From contig CALWJY010000001.1 of NCBI GenBank assembly GCA_944381135.1, positions 90,595 through 154,594 of the forward strand: a stretch of 64,000 nucleotides of DNA, in the 5' to 3' direction. The notes under the pieces were generated by a model. It was not told the origin of the DNA. It made no database searches and saw nothing but the letters and a program-made list of their open reading frames with translations. This DNA is from an uncultured Clostridia bacterium (GTDB lineage: Bacteria > Bacillota > Clostridia > Christensenellales > UBA1242). Both the position numbers and the translations under genes were made by a program. Below are positions 3,019 to 56,397 of this stretch, piece after piece; position 1 is the first letter of the stretch, and each line of letters begins with the position of its first letter.

Positions 3019-3072
3019 CAACATCTTGTGTGGTATGCAAGGAACAAAAATTACATAATACACAATATGTTG
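3019..3072. repeat. intergenic palindromic element, copy a (GTGGTATGCA / CATAATACAC arms, CAACAT...ATGTTG ends)
   Basis: caacatcttgtgtggtatgcaaggaacaaaaattacataatacacaatatgttg. About 20-nt imperfect inverted arms, related to copies at 28875, 33331, 36683, 52926 and 56306. Confidence 0.6.
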
Positions 3073-3105
3073 ATTAAACTAAACATCTCAAGAAAAGGAG
3101 AAATT

Positions 3106-3402
3106 ATGATTACAACAAAGCAAAGAGCGTTTTTGCGCGGACTTGGAAATGCACTTGAACCGGTGATGCAAATTGGAAAAGAGGGTTTGTCAGAAAATGT
3201 TGTCACATCTGTCAATTTGCTTTTGGAAGCACGCGAACTTGTGAAAATCAGAGTGCTTAAAAACAATGATGATGGTGTGCGAGAGACGGCAGATGAACTT
3301 TCATCCAAACTTGGCGCAGACATTGTGCAAGTGATTGGCAACAATTTCATTCTCTACAAAAAGTCCACACGCAAAGACTTCAAACACATTCAGCTTCCAT
3401 AA
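3106..3402 (+). CDS. yhbY: YhbY-like CRM-domain RNA-binding protein
   Basis: TTKQRAFLRGLGNALEPVMQIGKEGLSENV...ELVKIRVL matches the YhbY/CRS1 pattern. ATG at 3106 lies 6 nt after AAAGGAG. Confidence 0.85.
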   Translation: MITTKQRAFLRGLGNALEPVMQIGKEGLSENVVTSVNLLLEARELVKIRVLKNNDDGVRETADELSSKLGADIVQVIGNNFILYKKSTRKDFKHIQLP

Positions 3403-3470
3403 ATTTGCTCATTTGAAAGAATGACGAAAAGAGAGGTTGAAGAGTTGGAAGAGAACAGAATTAGATTTCT

Positions 3471-4280
3471 TCACAAAATTTCGGGTTCGCCTTTCACATT
3501 GAAATATGGATTGAACTGAGAAATGAGGGCAAAAACCACAAGAAGCGAGGCAATCACGCAATAATAGATTGTGGTGCGCACAAAAAGTCCGCAAAGAATG
3601 AGAATTAATGACGAGAAAAGATAGCCTTTTGTCCTTTGTTTATTGAAAGAATACGCCAAAAACTCCTTGAATGCAAGGCGTTTTTCTTTTTTATATTGGT
3701 GCGTGATTTTTGGAAAACAATCATAGAATTTATACAGTTTTTCATAGGTTTGATATTCATCCAAAATCAAAAATTTTTCCTCAAAATTTTGACAGAATGA
3801 AACAAGTTGTTTGTCCGAAACTTCTCTGCAACAAATCACAATTTTGCCACATTTTTCTTTTTTGATTTTGTTGTAGATTGTCATAAAACGCGGGATGTTT
3901 AAGCCCTCAAAGGAAAAATCGGCATAGAGCAAGGTTTTGGTGCCGGTTTCGTGCTTGATGACAAGATGGTTTTTGTGCTTTGTAATGTTGTCATGTTTTT
4001 TGGATGCCAACTGAACAAAAAAATCAATGGGTTTATCCTCACAAGCAAGAGACAAAAACATGTTTTCCGCATCCATTTTCTCTTTGAGTTTAAGCCCAAT
4101 TTTTGCTTGTTTTCGCCTTTGAAAGAAAAGCAAAATTCCATAAATTGCAGCGGACACAAGCACAGAAACAAGAACGGCAATCCAAAGTTTTCGGATGAAA
4201 TATCTCAGCCATATGAATGACAGCAAAAAAATGAGGACAAATTTCAAAATTTCTTGAAAAATTAAACTTATTCTTCTCAT
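3471..4280 (-). CDS. hypothetical membrane protein (2 N-terminal and 2 C-terminal TM helices around a soluble core)
   Basis: 269-aa ORF with hydrophobic N- and C-terminal segments. It is the only minus-strand CDS in the first 33 kb. No family recognised. Confidence 0.5.
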   Translation of the reverse strand: MRRISLIFQEILKFVLIFLLSFIWLRYFIRKLWIAVLVSVLVSAAIYGILLFFQRRKQAKIGLKLKEKMDAENMFLSLACEDKPIDFFVQLASKKHDNITKHKNHLVIKHETGTKTLLYADFSFEGLNIPRFMTIYNKIKKEKCGKIVICCREVSDKQLVSFCQNFEEKFLILDEYQTYEKLYKFYDCFPKITHQYKKEKRLAFKEFLAYSFNKQRTKGYLFSSLILILCGLFVRTTIYYCVIASLLVVFALISQFNPYFNVKGEPEIL

Positions 4281-4477
4281 GCCACAATTTTTGACATTTT
4301 TTAATTTTTATATTCATTGATGTTATAGATTTAAGATTTAATTCATTTTTAAAAATTATTTTAAAAATTTCCGATTATCTGTTTTTTTCTCTCGTGTATT
4401 TTCTTCTTTTTTGTTTTTTTTGTCTTTGCTTTTAGTTTTTTGCAATGCTCTTCAAATTGTATTAAAAAATATAGGAA

Positions 4478-4550
4478 GCATCAAGGATGCGACGCAAAAG
4501 CAACAATGTCGCAAAAAGCATCAATGACGTAAAAAGCGTCAATGACGCCA
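4478..4550 (+). repeat. four tandem ~18-nt repeats (GCATCAATGACGnAAAAA), the last forming the palindrome GCGTCAATGACGC
   Basis: gcatcaaggatgcgacgcaaaa / gcaacaatgtcgcaaaaa / gcatcaatgacgtaaaaa / gcgtcaatgacgcc, read directly from the sequence. Confidence 0.8.
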
Positions 4551-4575
4551 ATTTTAAAAACATTCATTCAAACAT

Positions 4576-4604
4576 TTGACAATTTGCGTTTTTGCTGATA
4601 GAAT
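4576..4604 (+). promoter_or_regulatory. sigmaA-type promoter directly abutting the rsfS start codon
   Basis: TTGACA (4576-4581), 17-nt spacer, TGaTAGAAT extended -10 (4596-4604). ATG at 4611 is 6 nt after the -10 and there is no Shine-Dalgarno. Confidence 0.55.
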
Positions 4605-4610
4605 TAAAAC

Positions 4611-7227: not shown

Positions 7228-7256
7228 GTTGGCAAAAGCAAAATTGGGTTTATTGA

Positions 7257-9891: not shown

Positions 9892-10158
9892 GCTGGGAGG
9901 TTGTTTTGTTGTGACTTGACCGACTGCCTCACAGACTTCAAACTCCACCAAAGCTTCCTCATGGCACATCAACAAATCTTCTTAGTGATGCTTCCGTCAG
10001 GATCTGACACGGTTCGAAGGAGCCAATTGCATGAGACCTTGATTTCAACATCCGAAATCCATGCACATATTCGACCAAACCACACCGAGACAACTGATCA
10101 ACCCTGCTGTAGCGGATTGCAGGTTACAGGGCACCGCTAACTCCCCATCTATCCCAGC
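9892..10158 (-). ncRNA. ffs: signal recognition particle RNA, large Bacillus-type (scRNA) with Alu domain
   Basis: The minus strand reads GCUGGGAUAGAUGGGGAGUUAGCGGUGCCCUGUAACCUGCAAUCCGCUACAGCAGGG (Alu-domain motif) and GUGUCAGAUCCUGACGGAAGCAUCACUAAG (helix-8 GGAAGCA motif). The 5' GCUGGGA pairs with the 3' UCCCAGC. About 267 nt, locally GC-richer than its flanks. Confidence 0.9.
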
Positions 10159-24410: not shown

Positions 24411-24541
24411 CGTAAGAAAGCAGAAGACACCCTTCTCACCCAGCGAATTTTGTTTTGCTGTGGTCACAAAATTTCAAATTTTCTTTAAGACAAATTGATT
24501 TTTTGTTGGTGGGATGTTTTGTGCGTCCTACCAATTTTTTT
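24411..24541 (+). promoter_or_regulatory. ribosomal protein L20 leader (transcription attenuator) upstream of infC
   Basis: About 150-nt structured leader ending in the terminator TTGGTGGGA-N11-TCCTACCAA plus a T7 run (24506-24541), immediately before the infC RBS. The position matches the Firmicute L20 autoregulatory leader. Confidence 0.6.
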
Positions 24542-24559
24542 AAAAAGGAGATTACGACA

Positions 24560-25296: not shown

Positions 25297-25644
25297 ATGA
25301 GAATTAAAAGAAGCGTAACCGCACTTAAAAAGCGTAGAAAAATTTTGAAACAAGCAAAAGGATATTTTGGCGCAAAAAGCAAACTCTATCGCACTGCTCG
25401 TGAGCAAGTGATGAAGAGTGGTCAATATGCATATGTTGGAAGAAAACTCAAGAAAAGAAACTTCCGCGCACTTTGGATCACAAGAATTAATGCTGGATGT
25501 CACCAAAATGACATTTCATATTCAAGATTTATTGATGGCTTGAAGAAAGCAAATGTCACATTAAACCGCAAAGTGCTTGCAGATATGGCTGTTCGTGAGC
25601 CAGAAGCATTTGCAAAACTTGTTGAAGTTGCAAAGAAAGCATAA
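25297..25644 (+). CDS. rplT: 50S ribosomal protein L20
   Basis: [25 protein letters not shown]... Confidence 0.95.
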
Positions 25645-25672
25645 CATAGAAAAAAAAGTTGCTGGCATAATT

Positions 25673-26626
25673 ATGGAACATTCTGAAAAATTATGCAAGC
25701 ATAAAGATGATGTTATGCACCACCTCAAACTTGATTCAACCAAAAGAAAAGAGGGGACGAATTTGGAAAAAGCAACAAAAAACTTCATATCAGACCTTAA
25801 AAAGCAAAAACGAGAAAACAAGTCTTTGCTTTTTTTGGATAATGTCAAAATCATAAGAGATGCTCTGAAAAACAAAGCAATTGTTCCAGAGTGTCTTTTG
25901 TCGTCTCTGACAGATTTGGAGGATGTCAAAACCCTTTTGCACTTAGAATATGATTTGCTTGACGCGAAAATCTTCCATGTTGATGAAAAAACTCTTGAAC
26001 AACTTTCGGACGCAAAAACACCACAGAAAGTGTTATGCATTGCATACCACACACAACATGTTGTGAAAACACCAACAACAAACTTTCTTGTTTTGGATGG
26101 GCTTCAAGACCCGGGAAATGTTGGCACACTGATTCGAACTGCAAAAGCGTGCGGTTTTGAAAGTGTCTTTTTGGTTGATTGTGTGAGAGTTGGCAATCCA
26201 AAACTCATCAGAAGTTCGGTTGGTGCAGTGCTTGACAGCCAAGTTTATGAAATGTCAAAAGGTGAGTTTGTTGAATTTGCAAAGCAAAACAATTTGCAAC
26301 TCATCTGCGCAGACATGAATGGCGAAAACATCTTTGATTTTGCTGACACTTTTAAACCATCTGAAAATGACATTTTGGCGTCATCAAGTCATCATTCAAA
26401 AATGGCAGACAATCAAATTAAGAAAAATCATGGCGAGAGTGTGCAAAAATCACAAACCACAATTCTTGGCGTCGTTGTTGGAAATGAGGGCAATGGCGTC
26501 AGTGACGAAATTGCAAACTTATGCTTCAAGACTGTGAAAATTCCAATGAAACCGGGCATTGAAAGTCTAAATGCAGGCGTCAGCGGGTCAATCATCATGT
26601 ATGCCTTAAGCAGGTGGAATTTCTGA
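25673..26626 (+). CDS. TrmH/SpoU-family RNA 2'-O-methyltransferase (RlmB-like) with an internal insertion
   Basis: LDGLQDPGNVGTLIRTAKACG, VVGNEGNGVS, IPMKPGIESLNAGVSGSIIMY are SpoU motifs. About 30 aa of polar insertion (SSSHHSKMADNQIKKNHGESVQKSQ). Start uncertain. Confidence 0.75.
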   Translation: MEHSEKLCKHKDDVMHHLKLDSTKRKEGTNLEKATKNFISDLKKQKRENKSLLFLDNVKIIRDALKNKAIVPECLLSSLTDLEDVKTLLHLEYDLLDAKIFHVDEKTLEQLSDAKTPQKVLCIAYHTQHVVKTPTTNFLVLDGLQDPGNVGTLIRTAKACGFESVFLVDCVRVGNPKLIRSSVGAVLDSQVYEMSKGEFVEFAKQNNLQLICADMNGENIFDFADTFKPSENDILASSSHHSKMADNQIKKNHGESVQKSQTTILGVVVGNEGNGVSDEIANLCFKTVKIPMKPGIESLNAGVSGSIIMYALSRWNF

Positions 26627-32529: not shown

Positions 32530-32614
32530 TTAGTTCCAATATAATAAACCTCATGCGAAATCATGGCAAAGTTTAAGAAAAATAAATTAAAAAAACAAGA
32601 CAATTGGAGAAAAA

Positions 32615-33208
32615 ATGAAAATAAATTATGAAGTCTTATTTCAAGTCGCAACCAATCGAAACTTCAAGGTAGGGGACAAAATACACTTTGGAAATGAATT
32701 TAATGGTCAAATGAAAATTTTTAATTTCACTTTCAATAAAGACGGAAAACCACTTCACGAACTTGGGCTGAAATCATCAAAACAGGGAATTATTAAGGAT
32801 AAAAAACTGCTTTTTGAAATGTCAGTTGCGTTACAAAATTATGATTTGTTTATGCGTGAAATTGCATTGGAAGAAGTCAGAAAAGAAAAATTCCCCAATT
32901 TTCCATCAAGATTTAAATGCATGTATCTTTCCGACAACAAGGATATAGTCATAAAAAATTTAAACATAATGCACTATAAATTTCCAGAAAATCAATATCA
33001 AGCAATTTCTGTGAAATTAAATGGAGAAATTTTTTATGCAAAAGATTTTGGCATTGGCAGATATGGATTATCATTCAACGAATATAAAATCCTTGCTGAA
33101 AAATATTGGTCACAGAATCAAAATTCAAATTCTCCAACAAAAGAAATTCTTTTTGTGGGGGATGCAGAGATTGTTGAAGTCTTCAAAGATACAAAAATCA
33201 AAACATAG
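32615..33208 (+). CDS. hypothetical protein (orphan, last plus-strand gene before the orientation switch)
   Basis: 197-aa ORF with GGAG RBS. No family recognised with confidence. Confidence 0.55.
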   Translation: MKINYEVLFQVATNRNFKVGDKIHFGNEFNGQMKIFNFTFNKDGKPLHELGLKSSKQGIIKDKKLLFEMSVALQNYDLFMREIALEEVRKEKFPNFPSRFKCMYLSDNKDIVIKNLNIMHYKFPENQYQAISVKLNGEIFYAKDFGIGRYGLSFNEYKILAEKYWSQNQNSNSPTKEILFVGDAEIVEVFKDTKIKT

Positions 33209-33282
33209 GATAAGCATGTCAAACAAAATTGCACTAAAATTTGTTGGGCGAGCGCAAATTTTTGCGATATATTATAATCCAA

Positions 33283-33316
33283 ATCTATTCGCAAAAGACA
33301 GGTTTTGCGAATAGAT
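33283..33316. other. perfect 14-bp hairpin / inverted repeat
   Basis: ATCTATTCGCAAAA-gacagg-TTTTGCGAATAGAT. TTTTGCG(A/T)/TCGCAAAA recurs four times in 33252-33332. Confidence 0.7.
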
Positions 33317-33330
33317 AGTGGATATTTTGC

Positions 33331-33407
33331 GTATTATGCAACAATTTCACACAAGATGTGGTATTATGCAAACTTTATCTTGATTTTGCCTTTTTAAGTA
33401 TTATGCA
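33331..33407 (+). repeat. three direct half-copies (GTATTATGCA) of the palindromic-element core
   Basis: gtattatgca at 33331-33340, 33361-33370 and 33398-33407. The middle copy is embedded in CAAGAT...ATCTTG, as in copy b. Confidence 0.65.
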
Positions 33408-33633
33408 TGCTTAATCTTATTCAACTTTTATAAAAATTCTTTTTCTTATCCAATGGTTTCTATAAAATTGTTTTATAATTTTTCTTATCTTTTTATATCC
33501 TTCTTTTTACATGATGATATAATATGTTTTTTAATTTTTTATTTTTAACAATTTTATAAAGTTCAACAATTTATAAGAAAACAACTTTACTCATACATAT
33601 AGAAAACAATAATTGTGTTATAAAAACAAATAT

Positions 33634-33666
33634 ATAAAAAAAGAAGTGGTTTTGATTGTCACTTCT
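33634..33666 (-). terminator. intrinsic terminator after nifU
   Basis: Minus strand: AGAAGTG-N11-CACTTCT followed by TTTTTT. Confidence 0.75.
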
Positions 33667-33688
33667 TCTTTTAATGTTTTTTTAATTT

Positions 33689-34117
33689 TTACATGTTTGA
33701 GTCATCAACTTCAACTTTTTTGTTTGCTTTTTTGATGCTCTTCTCTTTTCGTTTATAATAGTCCTCAATTGCCGCTCTGATTGATTCTTCAGCCAAAATT
33801 GAACAATGAATTTTGTGTGGTGGAAGTTCACCCAAAAGGTCAAGAATGTTTTTGTTTGTCACTTTCAACGCTTCATCTATTGTTTTGCCTTTAATCAAAT
33901 CGCAAGCCATATCTGTTGAAGCGATTGCTGCGCAACATCCGAAAGTCTTAAATTTTGCGTTTTCAATGACCCCATTATCAGAAATTTTCAAATACATCTT
34001 CATAATGTCGCCACATGCAACATTTCCAACTTGTCCAATCGCATTTGCACCATGCATTCCGCCAGCATTGCGAGGATTTTGAAATCTGTCAATCACTGTT
34101 TTGCTATACATAATCAC
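33689..34117 (-). CDS. nifU: Fe-S cluster scaffold protein NifU/IscU
   Basis: YSKTVIDRFQNPRN..GNVACGDIMKMY...FKTFGCCAAIAS...HCS gives the three conserved Cys. Confidence 0.9.
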   Translation of the reverse strand: MIMYSKTVIDRFQNPRNAGGMHGANAIGQVGNVACGDIMKMYLKISDNGVIENAKFKTFGCCAAIASTDMACDLIKGKTIDEALKVTNKNILDLLGELPPHKIHCSILAEESIRAAIEDYYKRKEKSIKKANKKVEVDDSNM

Positions 34118-35289
34118 AACCTCCCTGCTTGAATTGGTGAAATTGCTCTGAGTTTTGCAACAACTTTCGCAATTTCGTCAACAACATAGTCAACATCAGA
34201 TTTTGATATGTTTGTTCCAAATGAAAATCTGACAGACCCCTGTGCAATTTCATCTGAAATTCCCATAGCCTTCAAAACATGAGATGGAAGCAATGATTTT
34301 GATGTGCATGCTGATGAAGTTGAAACTGCAATTCCTGCCAAATCCAGCAACATCATGATGGATTCACCTTCAATTCCGTAGAATGAAATGTTGAGAATTG
34401 CATTCGATTTTTGGTGTGGATGTCCATTCACTTGGAAATATTCCACTTTTTCTTTAAGTTTTTCAAGGAAATATTCGCGTATGGTTTTGATTTTTCTGTT
34501 GTTTATAATGTGGTTTCGGCATGCAATTTCAATTGCTTTTCCAAACCCTGCAATGCCTGGAACATTTTCTGTCCCTGAACGCTTTCCACGTTCTTGATTT
34601 TCGCCACCGAATGTGATTGGGTCAATTCTGACGCCATTTTTTACATAAAGCGCACCAACGCCCTTAGGCCCATGAATTTTGTGTGCAGACATGGAAAGCA
34701 AATCAATTTCCATGTCTTGAACATCAATGTTTATGCTTCCAATTGCTTGAACAGCGTCTGTGTGGAAAAGGATTCCATAGTCGTGTGCAATTTTTGCAAT
34801 TGCTTTAATGTTTTGAATTGTGCCAACTTCATTGTTGACAGCCATAATTGAAATGAGAGTTGTATCTTTTCTGATTTCATGTAAAAGGTCTGGCAATTTC
34901 ACAAGTCCATATTCGTCCACAGACAAATATGTCACTTCAAACCCCTCTTTTTCAAGTTGAGCACAAGCGTTTAAAACTGCATGATGTTCAATTTGGCTTG
35001 TGATGATGTGTTTTCCTCTGTTCGCATTTGCATGAGCCACACCCAAAATTGCCCAATTGTCCGCTTCTGTTCCGCCACTTGTAAAATAGATTTCATTGGC
35101 TTTTTGTGCATTGATTGCTTCTTTAACTCTGTCGCGTGCACGGTCCACAATTGCCATTGCATCGCGTCCAAAACTATGTATTGAACCAGCATTTCCATAG
35201 ATTGTGTTGAAACATGGAAGCATTTCTGTCAAAACATCGTTTGAGACATAAGTTGTTGAAGCATTGTCCAAATAGATTCTTCTTTCCAT
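34114..35289 (-). CDS. nifS: cysteine desulfurase NifS
   Basis: IYLDNASTT, PLP-lysine region LSMSAHKIHGPKG, active-site loop SSACTS. Confidence 0.9.
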   Translation of the reverse strand: MERRIYLDNASTTYVSNDVLTEMLPCFNTIYGNAGSIHSFGRDAMAIVDRARDRVKEAINAQKANEIYFTSGGTEADNWAILGVAHANANRGKHIITSQIEHHAVLNACAQLEKEGFEVTYLSVDEYGLVKLPDLLHEIRKDTTLISIMAVNNEVGTIQNIKAIAKIAHDYGILFHTDAVQAIGSINIDVQDMEIDLLSMSAHKIHGPKGVGALYVKNGVRIDPITFGGENQERGKRSGTENVPGIAGFGKAIEIACRNHIINNRKIKTIREYFLEKLKEKVEYFQVNGHPHQKSNAILNISFYGIEGESIMMLLDLAGIAVSTSSACTSKSLLPSHVLKAMGISDEIAQGSVRFSFGTNISKSDVDYVVDEIAKVVAKLRAISPIQAGRL

Positions 35290-35353
35290 ACTTATTTCTT
35301 CAACTTCCTTTTAACAATTTGCATTGAAACTTGCAAAATTGAATCTTACCTTA

Positions 35354-35382
35354 ATTTTAACACCAAAATCAAGATATGTCAA
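35354..35382 (-). promoter_or_regulatory. sigmaA promoter of nifS-nifU
   Basis: Minus strand: TTGACA, 17-nt spacer, TGtTAAAAT. Confidence 0.6.
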
Positions 35383-35582
35383 TACTAATTTGCTTATTTT
35401 TCACCAAAAAATTAATCAAAATTGATTATTTTGAATGCCTTGAATTAATGGAATATAACATAAAAGCATTTATTTGCCCACAAACCATCATAAATATAAA
35501 TCTTAATGAGTGCAAACGAGATAAATTTAAATCAAACAATTCAAACAGATTGAATTTATTGAAATTATTAAATTTATTGAAA

Positions 35583-35891
35583 TTAAAGATATTTCTTCAC
35601 AGTTTCAACCAAATCGTCTTGCATCCAAAGCCCAATGTGCTTTTCTTTCTGCTGCCCATTCACAAACAAAATGAGTGTTGGGATGCTCATGATGCCAAAG
35701 CTACGCGCAAGTTTTTCTTCTTGGTCAACATCAACTTTATAAATTTTGACATCTTCTCCAAATTCCTCTTGTGCGTTTTCCAAAATTGGACTCATCATTC
35801 TGCAAGGCCCACACCATGTGGCAAAAAAGTCAATCAGAACAACCCCTTTCTTGATTTTTTCGTTAAATTCTTTCTCGTTGATTATCTCCAT
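35583..35891 (-). CDS. trxA: thioredoxin
   Basis: Active site FFATWCGPCRM, 102 aa. Confidence 0.9.
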   Translation of the reverse strand: MEIINEKEFNEKIKKGVVLIDFFATWCGPCRMMSPILENAQEEFGEDVKIYKVDVDQEEKLARSFGIMSIPTLILFVNGQQKEKHIGLWMQDDLVETVKKYL

Positions 35892-35925
35892 TTTTCTCTC
35901 CTTTTTAAAGACATAACTTATTTTT

Positions 35926-36624
35926 TTAGGTTTTCATTTCAGAATGTTTTAAAAGCCTTTGTATGACAAACCCCGCAAGCACACACCCACACATTGCAGG
36001 AAAATATGAAATGCTTCCAACTGTGTTTGAATCGGTTTGCATTGGAGTTTGTGTTGTTGTCACCACATCCAGATTTTTAATGCTTCGATTCCTAAGATTT
36101 TTTCGCATAACCTTTGCCAAACCGTCATTTGAAGTTTTGTATATGTCCACAACTTTAAATTCTGGAATTTCAATGCGGTTTCCAGAACCCATGGCTGAAA
36201 CAATTGGAATGATGTTTTCTTTGCAATGACAAATCAGTTCCACCTTGTCTTTCACACTGTCAATTGCGTCAACAACATAATCACAATTTTTCAGATTGAT
36301 TTTTCCATTTTGCAAATTCTCCGCAGTCAACCTCAAATTCAAAACCTCAACCTTGCAATTTGGATTGATTTTTGAAATCATTTCTGCCATAACTTCAGTT
36401 TTGAATTTGCCCACTGTTTGCGTGTCAGCCACGATTTGTCGGTTTGTGTTGGTTTCGTCCACAACATCAAAATCGACAATTGTGAAATGTCCAATGCCAG
36501 CGCGCGCAAGCAAACTGCAAGCATATCCTCCAACACCACCCAAACCAATCACAGCCACATGACTATTTTGCAGTTTCTTAAGTCCATCTTCACCAATCAA
36601 AAGTTGTGTTCTGTCTGTCCACAT
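35926..36624 (-). CDS. tcdA: ThiF/HesA-family tRNA threonylcarbamoyladenosine dehydratase (TcdA-like)
   Basis: VAVIGLGGVGGYA, ETNTNRQI. ATG (MWTDRTQLL) at 36624 follows AGAGGAGAA. The ORF-track TTG start at 36681 is unlikely. Confidence 0.75.
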   Translation of the reverse strand: MWTDRTQLLIGEDGLKKLQNSHVAVIGLGGVGGYACSLLARAGIGHFTIVDFDVVDETNTNRQIVADTQTVGKFKTEVMAEMISKINPNCKVEVLNLRLTAENLQNGKINLKNCDYVVDAIDSVKDKVELICHCKENIIPIVSAMGSGNRIEIPEFKVVDIYKTSNDGLAKVMRKNLRNRSIKNLDVVTTTQTPMQTDSNTVGSISYFPAMCGCVLAGFVIQRLLKHSEMKT

Positions 36625-36682: not shown

Positions 36683-36736
36683 CAACATATTGTGGTGTTA
36701 TGCAAATTTTTTCTTGCATAACACATCAATATATTG
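36683..36736. repeat. intergenic palindromic element, copy d (best-formed)
   Basis: caacatattgtggtgttatgcaa-attttttc-ttgcataacacatcaatatattg. Perfect 11-bp inner stem GTGTTATGCAA/TTGCATAACAC. Confidence 0.7.
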
Positions 36737-36753: not shown

Positions 36754-38049
36754 TTAAAGGACATATTTTTTGAGGTCAAATTGTTGTTGTTTGTCCTTGA
36801 AGACATTTTTCACATAGTTTCTGTCAATCATAACATCAAGCATTGGATGTTCTCCCGTTGCATTGAAAGACACATCTTCCAAAACTGTCTCCATGATTGT
36901 GTGAAGTCGTCTTGCACCCAAGTCTTCACTTGTTTCATTTTCTCGCTCAGCCATCTCGGCAATTTCATCAAGCGCATCATCCTTGAAAACAAGATTGATG
37001 TTGTCCACCTTAAGCATGTTGGAATATTGCACCGTGACTGCATTCTTTGGTGTTGACAAAATTTTCTTGAAATCTTCTTTTGTCAAGCTTTCAAGTTCCA
37101 CTCTGATTGGAAAACGTCCTTGAAGTTCTGGAATCATGTCCTCAATTTTTGAAACATGAAAAGCCCCCGCTGCAATGAAAAGAATAAAATCTGTCTTGAC
37201 ATTGCCATACTTTGTTGGAACTGTGCTTCCTTCAACGATTGGTAAAATGTCGCGTTGAACACCCTCTCTTGAAACATCTGCAGTTGTGCTTGCCTGACTT
37301 TTTCCAATGATTTTGTCAATTTCGTCAATGAAAATGATGCCCTGCTCTTCTGCAAGCGCAATTGCTTCTTCATTAACATTGTCCATGTCGATGATTTTGT
37401 CTGATTCTTCTTGCAACAGCACTTCACGCGCATGTCGAACGCTCATTTTCTTTTTCTTGTGTCTTTGTGGAGCAAGTCCATCAAACATAGAACCCAGAGA
37501 AATTTCGTTTCCGCCAATGGCCATCATTGGTTTTGGACTTTCAAGCACAGAAACTTCAATGATTTCATCCTCGCATTTTCCCGAGTGCAATTCCTCAAAA
37601 AGTGTTTCTCTGTTGACTTCGGTTTGCGTGACGCGTCTGTTTTGGAACAATGCATCCACGATTTTGTTTTCAACAATTGGCATAACCTTGTCTTCAACTT
37701 CTTTCTTTTTGTTGTCCTTGACCATTCTGACAGCAACTTCCACAAGGTCACGAACCATGCTTTCAACATCACGCCCAACATAGCCAACTTCGGTGTATTT
37801 TGTTGCTTCAACTTTCACAAATGGCGAACCAACAAGTTTTGCAAGACGCCTTGCAATTTCTGTCTTACCAACACCCGTTGGACCACTCATGACAATGTTT
37901 TTTGGTGTGATTTCATCACGAACTTCAGCAGGAAGTCTGCTTCGGCGATAGCGATTTCGAAGCGCAACAGCCACCGCTCTTTTCGCTTTGGCTTGTCCGA
38001 CAATGTATTTGTCAAGTTCGCTTACAATTTGTTTTGGTGTATAGTTCAT
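36754..38049 (-). CDS. hslU: ATP-dependent protease ATPase subunit HslU
   Basis: MNYTPKQIVSELDKYIVGQ, Walker A GPTGVGKTE, IIFIDEIDK. Confidence 0.9.
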   Translation of the reverse strand: MNYTPKQIVSELDKYIVGQAKAKRAVAVALRNRYRRSRLPAEVRDEITPKNIVMSGPTGVGKTEIARRLAKLVGSPFVKVEATKYTEVGYVGRDVESMVRDLVEVAVRMVKDNKKKEVEDKVMPIVENKIVDALFQNRRVTQTEVNRETLFEELHSGKCEDEIIEVSVLESPKPMMAIGGNEISLGSMFDGLAPQRHKKKKMSVRHAREVLLQEESDKIIDMDNVNEEAIALAEEQGIIFIDEIDKIIGKSQASTTADVSREGVQRDILPIVEGSTVPTKYGNVKTDFILFIAAGAFHVSKIEDMIPELQGRFPIRVELESLTKEDFKKILSTPKNAVTVQYSNMLKVDNINLVFKDDALDEIAEMAERENETSEDLGARRLHTIMETVLEDVSFNATGEHPMLDVMIDRNYVKNVFKDKQQQFDLKKYVL

Positions 38050-38068
38050 TTCAACCTCCATTTTTCAA

Positions 38069-38608
38069 TTAAAGTTTTTCAACAATGATGTTGTCGTTTG
38101 TGAACACGCAAATTTCGCTTGCAATCTTAAGTGCTTTATATGCAATTTCAGAAGCGGAATATTCCGTGTTTTGAATCAACGCTCTTGCAGCAGCCAAAGC
38201 ATAGTTTCCACCCGAGCCAATTGCACAAATTCCGTCTTGTGGTTCGATGACATTTCCTGCACCATCAAGAATGAGAATTTGTTTTTTGTCAGCAACAATC
38301 ATCATTGCCTCAAGTTGTCTGTGAGCCTTGTCTTCTCTCCAAGTTTGAGCCAACTCTACAGCACTTCTCATGAGGTTTCCTGCAAATTTGTTAAGCATAC
38401 CTTCAAACCTTTCGCTGAGCGAAAAAGCATCCGCAACAGAACCGGCAAAACCAATCACTACGCTGTTGTTGTAGATTCTGCGCACTTTTCTTGCATTGCT
38501 TTTGAAGATGATGCTGTTTTGCATTGTCACCTGTCCATCACCAGCAACGGCAATTTCATCACCACGCTTGACAGCACAAATTGTTGTTCCTTTAAAAATA
38601 TTTTCCAT
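38069..38608 (-). CDS. hslV: ATP-dependent protease subunit HslV
   Basis: [18 protein letters not shown] has the N-terminal Thr nucleophile pattern. The ORF-track N-terminal extension overlaps the upstream gene. Confidence 0.9.
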
Positions 38609-39851
38609 AAAGTTTCTCCTTAAATTTTTCGACTTGAGACTTTGAAAGAATTTTTTGGATTTGTTCTTCTCTTCTAAATTTTTCCAAGTCCTCATCATTC
38701 ATTATATCATATTTCAAATTAAATAACCTAAATTTTACAACACTTTTTTCCAACAAACTTTTGACAATTTTTCCTATGCAAGTGTTATCAAGCAAAAGGT
38801 CGCACGCACTGCTTCCCAAGCGGTCACAAACCAGACAATATGCACAATAGTTTGCCACAAGCAGACTTTCAAAACTGCCCGCGGTCCCCGCAAGCCCGCC
38901 ACAGACATAAATTTTTTCATCAATTTGCATGTGATTGTTGATACAAGTTGGACTTAAGAGAAATGTTTTTCTCATCACTTTGCTGAACTTCAAAATCTTG
39001 CAATTTTCAAGCGCCGGAATTGTTCGGACAATTTCACTTTGCTCTTCTTCGTCCAATCCAGAACAGAAATCTTCCACAACCAAAATTTTGAAATGCGGAA
39101 CATATTTCATCTTCAAACTTGCATAGCATTTGTTGTTTTCATCAAAATGAGGTCTCAAAATAGAGTTTCTCAGCGCTTCGCCCGACCTTCTTGCCACACT
39201 TTCAATTGTGATTTGTCGTTCTTTTTCCAAATTTTCAAGTTTATCATATTTTTCGTCAAATTCAATTGTTTTGTTGTGAAAAGCGCGATATTCTGCCTCA
39301 CTCAAATTTGCATAGCATTCAAAATCGGAAACAAAATTGAGGTTATCCAAATTCACACTTCTTGCGTCAATCACCATTTTTTCAGGCTGATAGAAACACA
39401 GGTGCATTTTTCCAATATAGTTTTCCAAATCGGACAAAAGAGTTGCATCTGTGTTGTGCCCGGTTGCCACAATTGTGGTTTCGGTGTTGTTGATATTTTC
39501 AATCGACGCATTAAAAATTTTGATTTTGACATTCGATTCCAACTCTTTTCTGACAGCCATCATAAAATTTTCGTCATATTCAAAACCAAAATTTTGAAAA
39601 TCATATTTTTTTGCGATGAAAAAGAGTGGACTGCTTAGGCAGTCTAACTCAAATCTCATGTTTTCAATCATAAAATTTTGGAAACGGTCATAATAGCCAA
39701 AAGGTGTTTTAGGACGGTTTTTGCCATTGTCGAAAATGTGAACATCAAAACCATTGTTGGCAAGAATAAGCGCAACTTCCGCTCCTGCCAACCCACAACC
39801 AATCACCTTGATTGGCTTTTTTGAAAATTTTGGTGCCACACTTTCAATCAC
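38592..39851 (-). CDS. trmFO: TrmFO-like FAD-dependent tRNA (m5U54) methyltransferase homolog, divergent
   Basis: [16 protein letters not shown] motif, ELDCLSS (compare ELVCSNS), [46 protein letters not shown]. Conserved synteny topA-trmFO-hslVU. Confidence 0.65.
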
Positions 39852-40004
39852 TCTTTCGCTTCGTCACCCTCCACCATATTTTTTATTGTCAAGCATTTTT
39901 GATTTGTGCTTTTCACGCATTCTTCAGCATTCTTCAAACAAACCGATTTGTTTTTTCCTTTGGTTTTTCATTTTTCAAAAAATCTGGTCCAAACTTCAAA
40001 AATT

Positions 40005-42107
40005 TTAATCTGGACTTGTTTGAGTCGCGTCATCTTGACTTGGCTGTTCAACCTTATAGTCACAAGCGGAGCATTTCACAAGTTTGCCTTTTCGGATGAG
40101 ATATTTTCCGCACTTTGGACATTTTTCTCCGGTTGGAATGTCCCAACTCATAAAATTGCATCCGGTTCTGTCCTCGCAAGCATAGAATGTCTTTCCGCGT
40201 TTGCTTCGCACTGCATAAACATTTTTTCCGCATTCTGGACAAACACCAACAGGTTTTCTGGCATTTTGATTTTCTTCAGTTTCAAGAGGTTTGACATTTT
40301 TGCATTTTGGAAAGTTTGAGCAACCCAAAAATTTGCCATATCTCCCCTCACGAATCACCATTTTGTGCCCGCATTTTTCGCAAACAATGTCTGTCTCGAC
40401 AGGTTGGGCTTTCATGGTCACACTGCTTGAGTCAGCATTCTTCAAAAGTCCCTTAAACCCATTCCAAAAACTGTCAACCACGCTGTGCCACTCGTCTTTG
40501 TTTTCTGCAATGTCATCCAAGCGGTTTTCCATGTGAGCGGTGAACTTCACGTTGATGACGCTGTTGAAGAACTTTTCAAGGTATTCAATGATTTTTCTGC
40601 CAAGTTCGGTTGGAACAAGATAGCGCCCATCCTTTGTGCAATAGTTTCTTGCAGTCAAAATGGTGATGGTTGCAGCGTATGTTGCAGGACGCCCAATTCC
40701 CTTTTCTTCCATGGCTTTCACCAAGCTGGCCTCGGTGTATCTTGCTGGTGGTTTAGTGAATTTTTGTTCTTCCTTGATTTCCAAAACTTTCAAAATTTCG
40801 TTCTCAGAAAGTTGAGGAAGTTTTGAAATGTCTTGCTTTTCTTCGTCAGTATATTCCTTATAAACCGCCGTGAAACCAGCAAATTCAAGTGTTTTTCCGC
40901 TGGCTTTGAAAGTGTAGGACCCCGCATTGATGGAAACATTGACATTGGAATATTGCGCCTCACTCATTTGGCTGGCAAGGAAACGCTCATAAATGAGTTT
41001 ATAGAGCCTATAATTGTCTTTGCTGAGCGAATCTTTCACCATTTCCGGCGTCATTTGCATGAAAATTGGACGAATTGCCTCGTGCGCGTCTTGAGCATTT
41101 TTCTTTGTGGCATAAATGTTTGGTTTTGCAGGAACATAATCTTTGCCAAATTTTTCAGCAATAAAATCTCTGCACGCGTTTTGTGCGTCAACTGAAACAC
41201 GCGTGGAATCAGTTCTGATGTAGGTGATGAGCGCAATTTTACCCTCGCCTTTCACCTCCACACCTTCATAGAGTTCTTGTGCTGAAGATGTTGTGCGCTT
41301 AAGACTCATGCCAAGTTTGTTGAGTGCGTCTTGTTGCATCGTGCTGGTGGTGAATGGTGCTGGCGCGTGTGATTTTGTGTTGCTCTTCTTGATGTTGTCA
41401 ACAACAAAATCTGAGGCTTTAATTTCTGTAAGCGCCTTTTCAACCTCTTCTTTGTTTGAAAGTTTAATTTTCTTGTTTTTGAAGTTTGTCAGTGTCGATT
41501 TAAACTTGATTTTGTCCTTTTCGTGAAAAGCAGTCACAGTCCAATATTCTTCTGGTTTGAAGTTTTCAATTTCTTTTTCGCGCTCCACCACAAGTTTAAG
41601 TGCAACAGACTGCACCCTGCCCGCAGAAAGTTTTGGTGCAATTTTTTTGGAAAGAATTGGTGAAAGTTTATATCCCACAATTCTGTCCATAACACGCCTT
41701 GCCTGTTGTGCGTTGACAAGATTGAGGTCAATTGCGCGCGGTTCGTTCAACGCTTTCAAAACTGCTTTTTTGGAAATTTCATTAAATTGGATTCGGCACT
41801 TTTTGTTTGGGTCAAGCCCAAGCACGTTTGCCACATGCCAAGAAATTGCCTCACCTTCGCGGTCCGGGTCGGTTGCAATCAGAACTTCATCCGCTCTTTC
41901 GGCTTTTTTCTTAAGTTCGGAAATCAACTCTTTCTTGTCTGGGTTGATTTCATAGTGAGGTTCATAGTTGTTGTTTAAGTCTATGGCAAAAGATTTTGCC
42001 GGCAAATCACGAATGTGACCTTTTGTGGCAAAAACCTCATATCCATTTCCTAAATATTTTTTCAAAGTCTCCCTTTTTGCAGGAGCCTCAATCACAACAA
42101 GTTTCAA
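40005..42107 (-). CDS. topA: DNA topoisomerase I
   Basis: Toprim start MKLVVIEAPAKRETL, active-site region YIRTDSTR, three C-terminal CxxC...CxxC zinc ribbons. Confidence 0.95.
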   Translation of the reverse strand: MKLVVIEAPAKRETLKKYLGNGYEVFATKGHIRDLPAKSFAIDLNNNYEPHYEINPDKKELISELKKKAERADEVLIATDPDREGEAISWHVANVLGLDPNKKCRIQFNEISKKAVLKALNEPRAIDLNLVNAQQARRVMDRIVGYKLSPILSKKIAPKLSAGRVQSVALKLVVEREKEIENFKPEEYWTVTAFHEKDKIKFKSTLTNFKNKKIKLSNKEEVEKALTEIKASDFVVDNIKKSNTKSHAPAPFTTSTMQQDALNKLGMSLKRTTSSAQELYEGVEVKGEGKIALITYIRTDSTRVSVDAQNACRDFIAEKFGKDYVPAKPNIYATKKNAQDAHEAIRPIFMQMTPEMVKDSLSKDNYRLYKLIYERFLASQMSEAQYSNVNVSINAGSYTFKASGKTLEFAGFTAVYKEYTDEEKQDISKLPQLSENEILKVLEIKEEQKFTKPPARYTEASLVKAMEEKGIGRPATYAATITILTARNYCTKDGRYLVPTELGRKIIEYLEKFFNSVINVKFTAHMENRLDDIAENKDEWHSVVDSFWNGFKGLLKNADSSSVTMKAQPVETDIVCEKCGHKMVIREGRYGKFLGCSNFPKCKNVKPLETEENQNARKPVGVCPECGKNVYAVRSKRGKTFYACEDRTGCNFMSWDIPTGEKCPKCGKYLIRKGKLVKCSACDYKVEQPSQDDATQTSPD

Positions 42108-52915: not shown

Positions 52916-52982
52916 AACATAACAACACAAAATATGGTGTGTTATGCATTACATAATACACCATATCTTTAAAACATAACAA
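52916..52982. repeat. intergenic palindromic element, copy e, bracketed by a 10-bp direct repeat AACATAACAA
   Basis: AACATAACAA-cacaaaATATGGTGTGTTATGcattaCATAATACACCATATctttaa-AACATAACAA. Confidence 0.7.
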
Positions 52983-53077: not shown

Positions 53078-54118
53078 TCAATCTACTCTGTGAATTTTAA
53101 CTTTTCCCGCAACCGCCTTTCGCATGTCTTCACTGATTGCAGCATAGTGCTTTTTGGTTGTGTTGACATCCCTATGTCCAAGCACATCTGCAACAATGTA
53201 GATGTCTTTCGTTTCACGATATAGATTTGTGCCAAAAGTCGAACGCAATTTGTGTGGAGAAATTTTCTTAAGCGGACTGCCCTCTTTGGCATATTTCTTA
53301 ACCAAATTTTCAACAGCACGCACACAAATTCGTTTGTTTTGAAGAGAAACAAACATGGCATTTTCATTTGGATCAAGTTTCAAAGTTTTTCGCTTTTCAA
53401 GCCATGCCAAAAGCGCCTCTTTGACTTCCAAAGAAAAATACAAAATTGATTGATTTCCACCTTTTCGCGTCACTTTGAAAGCCTCTTGATTGAAATCGAA
53501 GTCTTCAACATTAAGCCCAACAAGTTCTGAAATACGAATGCCGGTGCCAAGAAACAATGTGACAATTGCGTTGTCGCGCTCCATAGTGTTTTTGTTGTAG
53601 TGCTTTTGTCTTTCCGAAAAAGATGTTGGTGCTTGCACAGCATCCAACATTCTTTCCACCTCATCACTCTCAAGACGGATGATTTCTTTGTTGTGCAGTT
53701 TTGGAGTTTTGATTTTGCTTGCAACATTGCTTCTAAGCAAGTCGTGGTCAAAAAGATATTTGAAAAAACTTCTCACGCTTGCCAACTTTCTTGCTTTTCC
53801 GCGCTCAGTGTTTTTAAACATGTTGCCATTATATTCATAATAGGAAAGATAGGAAAGATAGTTTTCAATGTTTCGCGCCTGCAAACCATCAAGGTCCTCG
53901 AGTGCGATTTCCATTTTCGGCTTTTTGAAAACATATTTTTCCATATAGTCAAAGAAAACGCACAAATCCATGGCATAATTCACACGCGTCAAACTTGAGG
54001 TGTTGTTTTCAATGCCCGTGAAATAATCATAGCAAAATTCAGGAAGATTTGAAAGATAATTCCCAATTTTCTGCATATTCTTCAAATCGCGCTTTTCAAA
54101 ATATGATAAGTTTTTCAT
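53078..54118 (-). CDS. tyrosine site-specific recombinase, Xer family (XerS-like architecture)
   Basis: R in GTGIRISEL, HKLRSTFGT, LGHRDVNTTKKHY (catalytic Y). VTRKGGNQS and the long N-terminal LPEFCYDYF...FFDYM domain resemble XerS as I recall it. Start is taken at MKNLSYF (54118). Confidence 0.8.
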   Translation of the reverse strand: MKNLSYFEKRDLKNMQKIGNYLSNLPEFCYDYFTGIENNTSSLTRVNYAMDLCVFFDYMEKYVFKKPKMEIALEDLDGLQARNIENYLSYLSYYEYNGNMFKNTERGKARKLASVRSFFKYLFDHDLLRSNVASKIKTPKLHNKEIIRLESDEVERMLDAVQAPTSFSERQKHYNKNTMERDNAIVTLFLGTGIRISELVGLNVEDFDFNQEAFKVTRKGGNQSILYFSLEVKEALLAWLEKRKTLKLDPNENAMFVSLQNKRICVRAVENLVKKYAKEGSPLKKISPHKLRSTFGTNLYRETKDIYIVADVLGHRDVNTTKKHYAAISEDMRKAVAGKVKIHRVD

Positions 54119-54126
54119 ATGCATAT

Positions 54127-54154
54127 ATTTTATCAAATTATGCGCAAAATGCAA
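54127..54154 (-). promoter_or_regulatory. sigmaA-type promoter abutting the recombinase start codon
   Basis: Minus strand: TTGCAT, 16-nt spacer, TAAAAT. ATG at 54118 lies 8 nt after the -10, with no Shine-Dalgarno. Confidence 0.5.
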
Positions 54155-54249
54155 AATGTTTTGAGGAGTTTTTAAAAAAATAAATGCCATAAATATAAAG
54201 TGTCTTGCTTTACATTATAGAAAGTGGCACTGCCACCAACGCCATCCAC

Positions 54250-55419
54250 TTACAACATCCAATCAACATAGACGCCATAACCTTTTGTTGGGTCGTTCAG
54301 GAAAACGTGCGTCACTGCACCGATAATCTTTCCGTCCTGCATAATTGGCGAACCGCTCATGCCTTGCACAATTCCGCCAGAAAGTTCCAAAAGACGCGGG
54401 TCTTTCACACGAAACACAATGCTTTTGTCGTTTGCTGATTTCTGGTGGTTTGCTTTGATGATTTCAATGTCATATTCTTCTGTGATTCCGCTGATTGAAG
54501 AAACAATTTTGGCATCTCCCATTTTCACTCCCAGCCTGCCACCAAGTTTTGCTGTCAAGTTCTTGTCCACCAAACCTGTGGTGTCACTCAAAACGCCCTT
54601 AATTCCAAATTTCGAATTGGACGAAATTTCGCCCTTGCCTTTCGTACTTGAAACAAAAACACACTTAAGTTCGCCGGGATTGTTTTTCTTGCCTTTGTTT
54701 ATGCCAATCAGGTTGCAACCATAAATTTTTCCACTTGAAACCGGAACAATATTTCCGCTGTTTGCTTCCACAATCGGATGTCCAAGCGCTCCAAAATCAA
54801 GCGTTTTGGTGTTTACAAAAGTCAATGTTCCAACGCCCGTCACATCGTCCTTAACCCAAAGCCCAAGTTTAAGATTTCCGCTTTCATCTCGCGTGGTTTT
54901 CACCAAAGTTTTAAGCGTTTTGTTCTTTCTTAAAAACTCCACTTCTGCCTCTTCAGGTTGCCCATATTCAAGAAGAGATTGAATGTTGTCCAAATCGGTC
55001 ACTTCCATTCCATTAATTTTTGTGATGATGTCGCCTTCCTTAAGCGAAGAATTCCCCTCATCTCCAACCACAATTGCTCCGTCCGAACAAAGTGCAAGCC
55101 CAATTGGCGTGCCACCCACATAATATTTCTCATCGCCTGCCAAAACAACGCTCACCCTCTTGATTGGAATGAAACCAAAAAGTTTGAAAACAATTTCAGT
55201 CTGCTTGGTTTTTTCGCCACCGACAATCTTTTCGTTTTCTTCCATATTGGTGCTGATGAAACTTCCAAAGCGGTGCGATTCATTGACGGTCTCAACGTCC
55301 TCATAATCTGCCAAAAAGCCATTTTCAATCTGCATAATTTCTTGAATTGGCATGATGAGTGAAAAACTCAACAAAAAGACAAAAACAAAAGAAAACAAAC
55401 AAAAATAAGCCTTTTTCAT
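54250..55419 (-). CDS. spoIVB: stage IV sporulation protein B (S55 signalling peptidase)
   Basis: N-terminal TM, PDZ-like region, peptidase S55 region GTLTFV...GHPI...GMSGSPI. Confidence 0.85.
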   Translation of the reverse strand: MKKAYFCLFSFVFVFLLSFSLIMPIQEIMQIENGFLADYEDVETVNESHRFGSFISTNMEENEKIVGGEKTKQTEIVFKLFGFIPIKRVSVVLAGDEKYYVGGTPIGLALCSDGAIVVGDEGNSSLKEGDIITKINGMEVTDLDNIQSLLEYGQPEEAEVEFLRKNKTLKTLVKTTRDESGNLKLGLWVKDDVTGVGTLTFVNTKTLDFGALGHPIVEANSGNIVPVSSGKIYGCNLIGINKGKKNNPGELKCVFVSSTKGKGEISSNSKFGIKGVLSDTTGLVDKNLTAKLGGRLGVKMGDAKIVSSISGITEEYDIEIIKANHQKSANDKSIVFRVKDPRLLELSGGIVQGMSGSPIMQDGKIIGAVTHVFLNDPTKGYGVYVDWML

Positions 55420-55594
55420 AATTCTTAGTTTTTGCCGTTTTGTTTATATTATTCTCTTTCAAAACAACAATTTAATTGGTGGTGTTGTAAATTAACAAAC
55501 AACTAATTCATTAAAACTTTTGAACAAAATTGGTTATGTTTAAATAATCAAACATCATATTTTTATGAATAAATGCACAATTTTAAAATAAGGT

Positions 55595-56284
55595 TTAAAT
55601 CATGTTCAACCAATTTTTAAGCACAAAGCCATAGTGAGACAGTTCTTTCTTCAGCGTCTTGAAATTTGGACAAATTTTTCCCAAATCTGCCCAAAATTGA
55701 GGCTTATGGTTCATATGCAAACTGTGGCAAAGTTCGTGACAAATCACATAAACTGCCAATCTTTCTGGCAAAATCAAAAGTTTCCAATTCAGTTTCATGA
55801 TGCCTTTTGAATTAAAACTCCCCCAAACTCTGACAGATTCCACAGGTTTGATTTCTTTGAACTTAAGCCCAGTTTTAAGGGCAATTTGCCCTGTCAACTC
55901 CTCCAATTTTGAAAAATATGACAAATAACATTTTTTGATGGTTCTAAGTTGTTTTTCTTTTGATTGCCCGTCAAAATCTAAACAAAAATCATGGACATCT
56001 GCAAACTTTTCGCCATTAAGATAGATAAAACGCCAAAAATCAAAACCTTGTGCAAAGTTGTCATCCGAACTTAGCCTCTTTTGAACTTTATCAAGCCAAT
56101 TTTTCTTGCTTTCCAAAAATTCTGAAATTTTCCTGTCACTTATGTTTGTTGGCACTTTAAGCACAGCATGCTTGCTGTCCTCCACCTTCAAAACCATGGT
56201 TTTTCTTCTCATTCTGACAATTTCAACTTTCATGACAACAATCATAGCACAAAACAAAAATTTTTCAAAACTTTTGCGCAACAT
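55595..56284 (-). CDS. YgjP-like (DUF45/WLM) zinc metallopeptidase-fold protein
   Basis: HELCHSLHMNHKPQFW is an HExxH-type motif. RRKTMVLKV N-terminal pattern. Start uncertain (56284, 56245 or 56233). Confidence 0.7.
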   Translation of the reverse strand: MLRKSFEKFLFCAMIVVMKVEIVRMRRKTMVLKVEDSKHAVLKVPTNISDRKISEFLESKKNWLDKVQKRLSSDDNFAQGFDFWRFIYLNGEKFADVHDFCLDFDGQSKEKQLRTIKKCYLSYFSKLEELTGQIALKTGLKFKEIKPVESVRVWGSFNSKGIMKLNWKLLILPERLAVYVICHELCHSLHMNHKPQFWADLGKICPNFKTLKKELSHYGFVLKNWLNMI

Positions 56285-56305
56285 AAAAAGGATTTTGCAA
56301 ATTTA

Positions 56306-56397
56306 TTGCATAATTCCACAATATGTTGTGTGTGGTATGCGCATATCACCACAAATTGTGATATGTTATGCAATTTAAAAAAACTTTGCATAATACC
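56306..56397. repeat. compound cluster of 2-3 palindromic-element units, copy f
   Basis: ttgcataattccacaatatgttg + tgtgtggtatgcgcatatcaccaca + gatatgttatgcaatttaaaaaaactttgcataatacctc. Confidence 0.65.

Follow-up and report, generated by a model that had tools for sequence, protein, structure and literature searches.

The question raised by this stretch of 64,000 nucleotides from an uncultured Clostridia bacterium (hereafter, the window) is why variants of one imperfect palindrome recur between its genes. An earlier note on this DNA had described six such loci, had taken a palindrome of 50-60 nt to be the repeated entity, and had offered three explanations, namely, a repeat resembling repetitive extragenic palindromes (REP) or miniature inverted-repeat transposable elements (MITE), RNA processing or stability hairpins, and operators of one regulator. 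We read 82 kb of DNA, that is, the window with about 8.3 kb to its left and 9.9 kb to its right, from a 282-kb metagenome scaffold (ENA ERZ28614620). All six loci are present at the coordinates that had been given and the flanking genes are those that had been named: obg and yhbY, ruvA and ruvB, hslU and tcdA, tig and a xer-like gene, and YgjP/DUF45 and PadR genes, the remaining locus being at the switch in gene orientation. The dispersed motif family is real. What is repeated, however, is not the 50-60-nt palindrome but a building block of 21-22 nt, CAAYATRTTGTGGTRKTATGCA, with the consensus CAAYATRTTG-TGGTRK-TATGCA, which is variously combined. The explanation that we favour, tentatively, is that the elements are arrays of a 21-22-bp double-stranded motif to which a protein binds sequence-specifically, that the arms of a palindrome are separate copies of the motif, and that the hairpin potential is a by-product of two copies in inverted orientation.

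The unit occurs in a common long form and in a short form that has one G fewer. Its TATGCA end is nearly invariant among 146 units and there is no conservation 3' of TATGCA. Within the 22-nt unit there is no significant dyad, nor does it have a GTAG head, and two units are needed to make a palindrome. That the family is enriched over shuffled controls was borne out in two ways. A hidden Markov model (HMM) of the unit found 18 units scoring at least 8 bits in the 82 kb and none in 10 shuffles, in which the top score was 7.3 bits, and the 13-mer GTGGTRTTATGCA, when up to 2 mismatches were allowed, gave 10 matches against 2.2 expected, a number reached in none of 100 shuffles. The motif was not found in the literature that was searched, and it has neither an Rfam family nor a phage or plasmid match.

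The units are combined head-to-head (TATGCA-N-TGCATA), which is the arrangement of the hairpins in the earlier note, tail-to-tail, or as direct repeats. Head-to-head pairs lie between obg and yhbY (3019-3072, with units at 3019-3039 on the + strand and 3052-3072 on the - strand, 20.0 and 17.3 bits, fold z -5.1), between ruvA and ruvB (28883-28936, with units at 28883-28904 + and 28916-28936 -, 21.2 and 17.7 bits), after the stop codon of hslU and before the ribosome-binding site of tcdA (36683-36736, with units at 36683-36704 + and 36715-36736 -, 25.4 and 14.6 bits), and, with a gap of 1 nt, between the xer-like gene and tig (52928-52969, with units at 52928-52948 + and 52950-52969 -, 18.9 and 8.8 bits). 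The three direct copies described at the orientation switch are there as partial units, all on the + strand (33323-33340, 33352-33370, and 33398-33407, together 33323-33407), between the terminators of the convergent genes and beside a separate palindrome. The densest cluster (56307-56409), in the divergent promoter region between the YgjP/DUF45 gene and the PadR-like gene, has five units in alternating orientation (56307-56328 -, 56319-56340 +, 56341-56355 -, 56356-56372 +, and 56387-56409 -). The earlier list was incomplete because it overlooked a head-to-head pair at 26030-26063, inside a TrmH/SpoU-like coding sequence, which together with a degenerate upstream unit forms a cluster at 26005-26063. 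Three further clusters lie just beyond the window, in window coordinates at -3215..-3161, 65340-65393, and 67953-68009.

When the units of the relatives are included, the spacings are found to be quantised. Head-to-head gaps are either 0-2 nt (18 cases) or 7-14 nt (28 cases, with a peak at 10) and never 3-6 nt. Tail-to-tail pairs, which form the 35-bp palindrome TTGCATAAYACCACAAYATRTTGTGGTRTTATGCAA and are the commonest arrangement in relatives, have a sharp peak at N21 (23 cases, and 31 at N20-22). The units are almost exclusively noncoding, since 136 of the 154 that were classified are outside coding sequence, which makes up 85% of the DNA, and they occur in every kind of spacer: 79 in tandem, 29 in divergent, and 28 in convergent spacers, in proportion to the total lengths of these spacers (52, 13, and 16 kb). 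Relative to the flanking genes, 44 units are co-oriented and 35 anti-oriented, which is unbiased. Thus, of the two biases that had been proposed as a check, the intergenic one was found and the one in orientation was not.

The source organism belongs to the Bacillota and forms spores; it has a G+C content of 37% and carries a spoIIIA operon. In the window the cumulative GC skew climbs to about 33 kb and then drops, and the genes switch from the + to the - strand there (about 33.3 kb, within 30000-36000). Since the skew maximum coincides with the switch in gene strand, the window spans the replication terminus; neither the terminus nor the concentration of the family around it had been seen in the earlier note. 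Species-representative genomes were scanned with an exact degenerate 18-mer, and at least 117 loci were listed, most of them in gut genomes labelled 'uncultured Clostridia' or Christensenella/Catabacter and in metagenome-assembled genomes of Candidatus Caccovivens, the remainder being scattered chance matches. Among the listed loci that passed a filter on score and G+C content, 45 of 63 have at least 2 genes in common with the 82-kb terminus region, and after chance matches and matches in coding sequence had been removed by hand about 43 of 57 (~75%) are syntenic with it, which is far more than the few percent expected if the loci were evenly spread. The listed matches go beyond the orthologues of the three units of the window that fit the exact pattern: many are at the YgjP|PadR site, and the units that the window has there do not fit the 18-mer. 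In two long contigs, of 449 kb and 373 kb, the listed exact-pattern matches are confined to the syntenic part or its vicinity. Judged by the synteny of the listed loci, then, the motif is concentrated in the region around the replication terminus. Exact-pattern matches in more distant Clostridia were rejected because they are conserved coding motifs, namely, a ComM-like C-terminus and a dacB-like signal peptide. Such coding-motif matches, found in L018, L032, L073, L082, and L105 and in L061, L080, and L100, call for caution in pattern-based censuses.

To have a sample independent of the motif, 40 metagenome loci were chosen by HslU homology alone. Among those of at least 10 kb, units are present in 10 of the 10 whose HslU is at least 81% identical to that of the window and in none at 74% identity or less. 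The family is therefore confined to one clade of gut Clostridia, that with HslU at least 81% identical. As an observation apart from this census, true 35-bp palindromes of the family were seen in two more distant lineages, in which SpoIVB is about 47-48% identical (L035:4330-4400 and L099:1880-1945).

Within the clade the units are at the same positions, that is, between hslU and tcdA, between ruvA and ruvB, in the convergent spacer at the terminus, and in the TrmH-like coding sequence. Orthologous copies of the obg|yhbY pair were found in L017, L076, and L121 and of the ruvA|ruvB units in L125, L131, L154, and L049. The hslU|tcdA junction is filled in 8 of the 10 unbiased relatives and is empty, with 6-10 nt between the genes, in L128 and L155. 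In 20 hslU|tcdA spacers the tcdA-proximal arm, TTGCATAAYACCACAATATRTTG, is the better conserved one, and the loops and flanks have drifted. Relatives whose TcdA is only 54-65% identical keep units at the same junctions, and units are retained at orthologous positions even across genera. The cluster in the TrmH/SpoU-like coding sequence (25577-26626, with the unit-like stretch at 26005-26063) is informative in another way. About 38 nt are nearly identical, all synonymous positions included, in four species (the window, L037, L125, and L131), whereas the flanking codons vary freely; L126 has a unit at the same position but its alignment is gapped and it was kept outside the codon comparison. The TrmH-like protein is equally long in L122 and L128, which lack the motif, and so nothing has been inserted in this gene. 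Retention at junctions and frozen synonymous sites are, at the level of sequence comparison, evidence for selection on the DNA sequence.

These data bear directly on the strongest alternative, which is that the elements are selfish palindromic repeats of the REP type, with their mosaic elements (BIME), or of the MITE type, spread by a trans-acting enzyme or by recombination and largely neutral, with some copies co-opted, for example, at the PadR-like promoter. Much of the pattern is as this explanation would have it: the clusters are mosaics of alternating-orientation units with common ends, as BIMEs are, the intergenic bias is strong with no preference for promoters or terminators, the hslU|tcdA site is found both filled and empty, the family is lineage-specific, and no Rfam family was matched. 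What it leaves unexplained is the cluster in the coding sequence, which neither changed the length of the protein nor left the synonymous sites of four species free, the persistence of copies at orthologous junctions across genera, where neutral spacers should have been scrambled, and the concentration of about 75% of the listed clade loci in one 82-kb region rather than an even spread. REPs avoid divergent promoter regions, whereas 21% of the units are in such regions. No target-site duplication flanks the filled hslU|tcdA sites, and phage and plasmid collections gave no match. The statement in the earlier note that no transposase lies nearby is correct, the sole recombinase being the Xer-like one at 53078-54190, and a tblastn search for an IS200/IS605 or RAYT-like gene matched none in about 1.3 Mb of loci including the 82 kb, although this is a weak test, made with two TnpA queries. 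On balance we regard a selfish repeat as unlikely, while it is the likeliest of the alternatives.

The second alternative is that the elements act in the transcript as RNA hairpins, as stabilisers or processing sites between neighbouring cistrons, whose relative expression they would set. Several copies are within operons and immediately precede the next ribosome-binding site (obg|yhbY, ruvA|ruvB, hslU|tcdA, and pheS|pheT), and when folding was compared with that of shuffled sequences copies 1, 4, and 5 of the six gave z values of -5 to -7, whereas copy 2 gave about -1.4 and the direct-repeat locus about -0.9. If the helix were what is selected the two arms should vary together, and they do not. 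Over the 22-bp stem, 24 hairpin-type copies have 73.5% of positions paired, against 74.6% when the 3' arms are swapped among copies; 425 of 500 such shuffles equal or exceed the observed pairing, and the covariation score is 0.090 against 0.104. The RNAalifold consensus retains six invariant pairs and has no compensated pair. The variable RK dinucleotide next to TATGCA is equal in both arms in 11 of 46 pairs, with 12.6 expected, and mismatches at the K position are frequent. Thus the arms pair because both copy one consensus and not because a helix is selected. Moreover, divergent promoter regions have copies too, as does the space between the terminators of convergent genes, and the direct-repeat and 1-nt-gap arrangements are unable to form a hairpin. 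The absence of covariation, the unbiased orientation, and the occurrence in all spacer types argue against an RNA role, and also against a terminator or promoter as the general function. By themselves, the results on covariation and placement do not separate a protein-binding motif from a selfish repeat. A scan with Rfam 15 gave no match at any element; only the signal recognition particle (SRP) RNA reached the gathering score, and allowing E values up to 1 added a sub-threshold L20 leader and two chance matches, none at an element. RNA processing or stability hairpins, as proposed in the earlier note, are therefore poorly supported and we consider them very improbable. Two of these Rfam matches are observations in their own right: the large bacterial SRP RNA (9893-10157, - strand, 151.7 bits) lies amid + strand genes and adjoins the spoIIIA operon (10419 onward), and the L20 leader match (24412-24545, + strand, 42.8 bits against a gathering score of 58.7, E = 4e-5) is upstream of infC-rpmI-rplT.

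The third alternative arises from what lies at the terminus itself. At the switch of gene strand and GC skew, and flanked by units, there is a unique palindrome with 14-nt arms and a 6-nt centre, ATCTATTCGCAAAA-GACAGG-TTTTGCGAATAGAT (33283-33316). Sixteen loci spanning the convergence point, that of the window region and those of 15 relatives, have one copy each. The 14-bp arms of the palindrome are conserved and show two compensatory variants, and the 6-bp centre is variable. The relatives likewise have 2-3 direct units beside the palindrome, and L125, L127, and L154 have in addition an inverted partial unit on its other side. No canonical XerCD dif site was found in the 82 kb, nor a B. subtilis-type dif within 3 mismatches, the best matches to the degenerate consensus being at background level. 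The only nearby tyrosine recombinase, that at 53078-54190 on the - strand, has 370 amino acids, is closest to XerS (NCBIfam 182 bits, under the cut-off), and is 74-88% identical in clade relatives, and the topA-trmFO-hslV-hslU operon (36754-42107, - strand) lacks the codV/xerC gene that Bacillus has there. It is plausible that the palindrome is a candidate unconventional dif site for a single recombinase, which would support the call of the terminus.

The units themselves could then be dif-like or XDS-like sites that the Xer-type recombinase binds without recombination, for example, to unload SMC near the terminus. The dif core is CATAA-TGTATA-TTATG, which the short unit resembles with CATAT-TGTGTA-TTATG. 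XDS have been described as dif-like sequences of the terminus region that XerD uses to unload Smc-ScpAB (PMC11840125), and the concentration of the units near the terminus and their position directly beside the best dif candidate are as expected of such sites. But the score of the units on a degenerate dif consensus, 20-21 of 27, is that of shuffled sequence, there is no conservation past TTATGCAA, where the outer XerD arm would sit, the half-site ATCTATTCGCAAAA of the candidate dif is unlike the unit, and the common long variant of the unit would give a 7-nt centre. That the units are Xer sites is accordingly a reading to which we give little credence.

The remaining candidates can be dismissed briefly. 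The claim that the elements are not ordinary terminators held, because no U-tract or T-run follows any copy and a terminator scan called none; a sigma-70 promoter inside the unit was ruled out because TTGCAT and TATGCA are 21-22 nt apart and the orientation is unbiased; and likenesses to an NrdR box (in the centre of the 35-bp palindrome), to an ARG box (in the TGCATA cores), and to a sigma-F/G -35 box (TGCATA) were each rejected because the sites are too numerous, are not tied to relevant genes, and have no orientation bias. A phage or plasmid origin was also rejected, since the densest cluster has no blastn match in the phage and plasmid collections; the lone viral-contig match to the 18-mer is an isolated chance match. 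Ahead of argR (61578-62030, - strand) there is a pair of ARG-box-like palindromes, TGAATAAATATGCA and TGCATATTTATAAA (~62083-62140), which L035 and L080 have conserved and which has the TATGCA/TGCATA core in common with the units. This pair was caught by the regular expression and was left out of the unit set.

If the units are read by a protein, as we favour, the best candidate for it is encoded next to the densest cluster, which is also the best-conserved one and sits between the gene of the YgjP/DUF45 metallopeptidase and the PadR-like gene (56527-58503, + strand; Pfam PadR, E = 5.5e-16). The promoter of the PadR-like gene is of the sigma-70 type (56408-56437, + strand; TTGACA, 18 nt, TAAAAT, 11 of 12 matches) and is the only promoter that coincides with a unit: the -35 box and the outer end of the cluster's last unit overlap. 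In most relatives this promoter is TTGACA, 17-18 nt, TATAAT, and the layout TATGCA-N12-14(A/T)-TGCATAATAC....TTTG-TTGACA recurs in most of the 16 species that were compared. The predicted protein, of 656-658 amino acids, has at its N-terminus a winged helix to which, among solved structures, the LmrR-type PadR proteins come closest. A linker of about 430 amino acids follows, for the most part disordered but with three conserved blocks, and the C-terminal part has four transmembrane helices. Only the winged helix and the transmembrane bundle are modelled with confidence by AF2, and structure prediction gave no fold beyond these two. Among 217 homologues the best 120 have 514-656 amino acids and PadR as their only Pfam domain. 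The winged helix hardly varies among 25 homologues whose identity to the window protein is 52-62% over their length, which fits with the motif itself being conserved across the clade. AphA is a member of the PadR family. In Vibrio it recognises ATATGCA-N6-TGCATAT (PMC3440409). The units contain the PadR/AphA half-site ATG(C/T)...(G/A)CAT, their TATGCA/TGCATA core matching the half-site of AphA.

Based on these findings, we propose that a sequence-specific protein binds each unit, that this protein may be the membrane-anchored PadR-like protein, and that it would autoregulate, acting on its promoter by way of the unit abutting the -35 box. Its occupancy of some tens of sites over at least 80 kb around the terminus would serve to mark the region or to tether it to the membrane, much as matS/MatP, XDS/XerD, RBM/RefZ, or NBS/Noc do in other bacteria. 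It is probably through the copying of small modules that new sites arise, to be kept afterwards by selection, and such copying would explain why the hslU|tcdA site is filled in some relatives and empty in others. Since a membrane-bound regulator is poor at searching, the targets of the PadR-like protein may also simply cluster near its own gene, which lies 23 kb away from the terminus. Of the three explanations in the earlier note, operators of one regulator are the one that fits best: the arms behave as independent copies of a motif, their spacing is quantised, and the best-conserved cluster adjoins the promoter of a PadR-family gene in 16 species. A REP/MITE-like element has in its favour the mosaic clusters and the two empty hslU|tcdA sites, and does not account for the cluster in the coding sequence, the retention across genera, and the regional concentration.

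Several observations weigh against our proposal. The empty sites in L128 and L155 point to gain or loss of modules of about 60-110 bp, as with mobile repeats, and the absence of covariation between the arms fits equally well with a repeat family whose arms copy one consensus. The flanking genes (yhbY, ruvB, tcdA, tig, and pheT) have no common regulatory theme. The concentration at the terminus is deduced from the synteny of retrieved loci, among the matches listed. The gap of 6 nt between TATGCA and TGCATA, which AphA/PadR operators would have and which would set the half-sites about 12-13 bp apart, occurs in 0 of 46 head-to-head pairs. The case for the PadR-like protein as the candidate binder is made by adjacency, the conserved promoter layout, and family precedent, and the motif-bearing L035 and L099 show no PadR-like gene in their 8-kb blocks; in L035, argR, recN, and spoIVB follow one another directly, without an intervening PadR-like gene.

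A more far-reaching possibility can be put forward, although we think it doubtful in this full form. The clade may have a terminus-domain system of its own, unrelated to MatP/matS or XerD/XDS, in which a membrane-anchored PadR-type protein on tens of 22-bp sites over about 100-200 kb around the terminus, some of them flanking the dif-like palindrome, would tether or mark the terminus at the membrane during division or sporulation. The way in which the terminus region is recognised differs by lineage, with MatP in enterobacteria, XerD/XDS in Bacillus, and ZapT in Caulobacter, and we know of no terminus-recognising protein in Clostridia. A motif array at the terminus together with a plausible membrane-tethered binder is therefore a testable candidate in gut bacteria that have never been cultured. 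Even if the idea of a landmark fails, the motif is of use in annotation as a lineage-specific DNA motif that marks the terminus, together with a candidate unconventional dif.

How the family compares with known systems depends on the feature that is considered. With the REP/BIME sequences of enterobacteria it has in common short imperfect intergenic palindromes, clusters of alternating orientation, lineage specificity, and the fact that they are not intrinsic terminators. It differs in that the unit has no GTAG head and is not itself palindromic, in that the family is, as far as could be judged, regionally concentrated and not genome-wide, and in that some copies are in the promoter regions of divergent genes and one cluster, which involved no insertion, is within a coding sequence. 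RUP, BOX, and Correia MITEs of Firmicutes and Neisseria are likewise dispersed intergenic repeats with inverted ends and with differences in presence and absence. The present elements, however, are much shorter (about 50 nt as against 100-150 or more), show no terminal repeat with target duplication, have no parent insertion sequence that could be found, and persist at orthologous sites across genera.

With the AphA box of Vibrio the units share the TATGCA/TGCATA half-site core, and the best-conserved cluster lies at a PadR-family promoter, as is usual for the autoregulatory operators of this family. Unlike in the AphA box, a 6-nt gap is never found here and each unit has about 15 further conserved bases, and unlike PadR operators the present sites are numerous and mostly away from promoters. 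Typical PadR proteins have 110-180 amino acids, whereas the present one has about 650 and is predicted to be membrane-anchored. The chromosomal landmark systems, matS/MatP of E. coli and XDS/XerD, RBM/RefZ, and NBS/Noc of B. subtilis, resemble the family, judged by the listed loci, in having a modest copy number in one chromosomal region, here that around the terminus, positions conserved between related species, and sites that are tolerated inside genes and are read as double-stranded DNA regardless of transcription. Two of them, XDS/XerD and matS/MatP, have been described as terminus systems (PMC11894783, PMC11840125). The present motif is unrelated to theirs in sequence, is longer (22 bp), and usually occurs in inverted pairs or clusters, and its candidate binder would be a PadR-type winged helix with a four-helix membrane anchor and not a protein of the MatP, XerD, TetR, or ParB type. 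What appears to be new is the motif, within a known kind of system, the position-specific array of protein-binding sites, for which sequence comparison suggests a candidate binder and a possible function.

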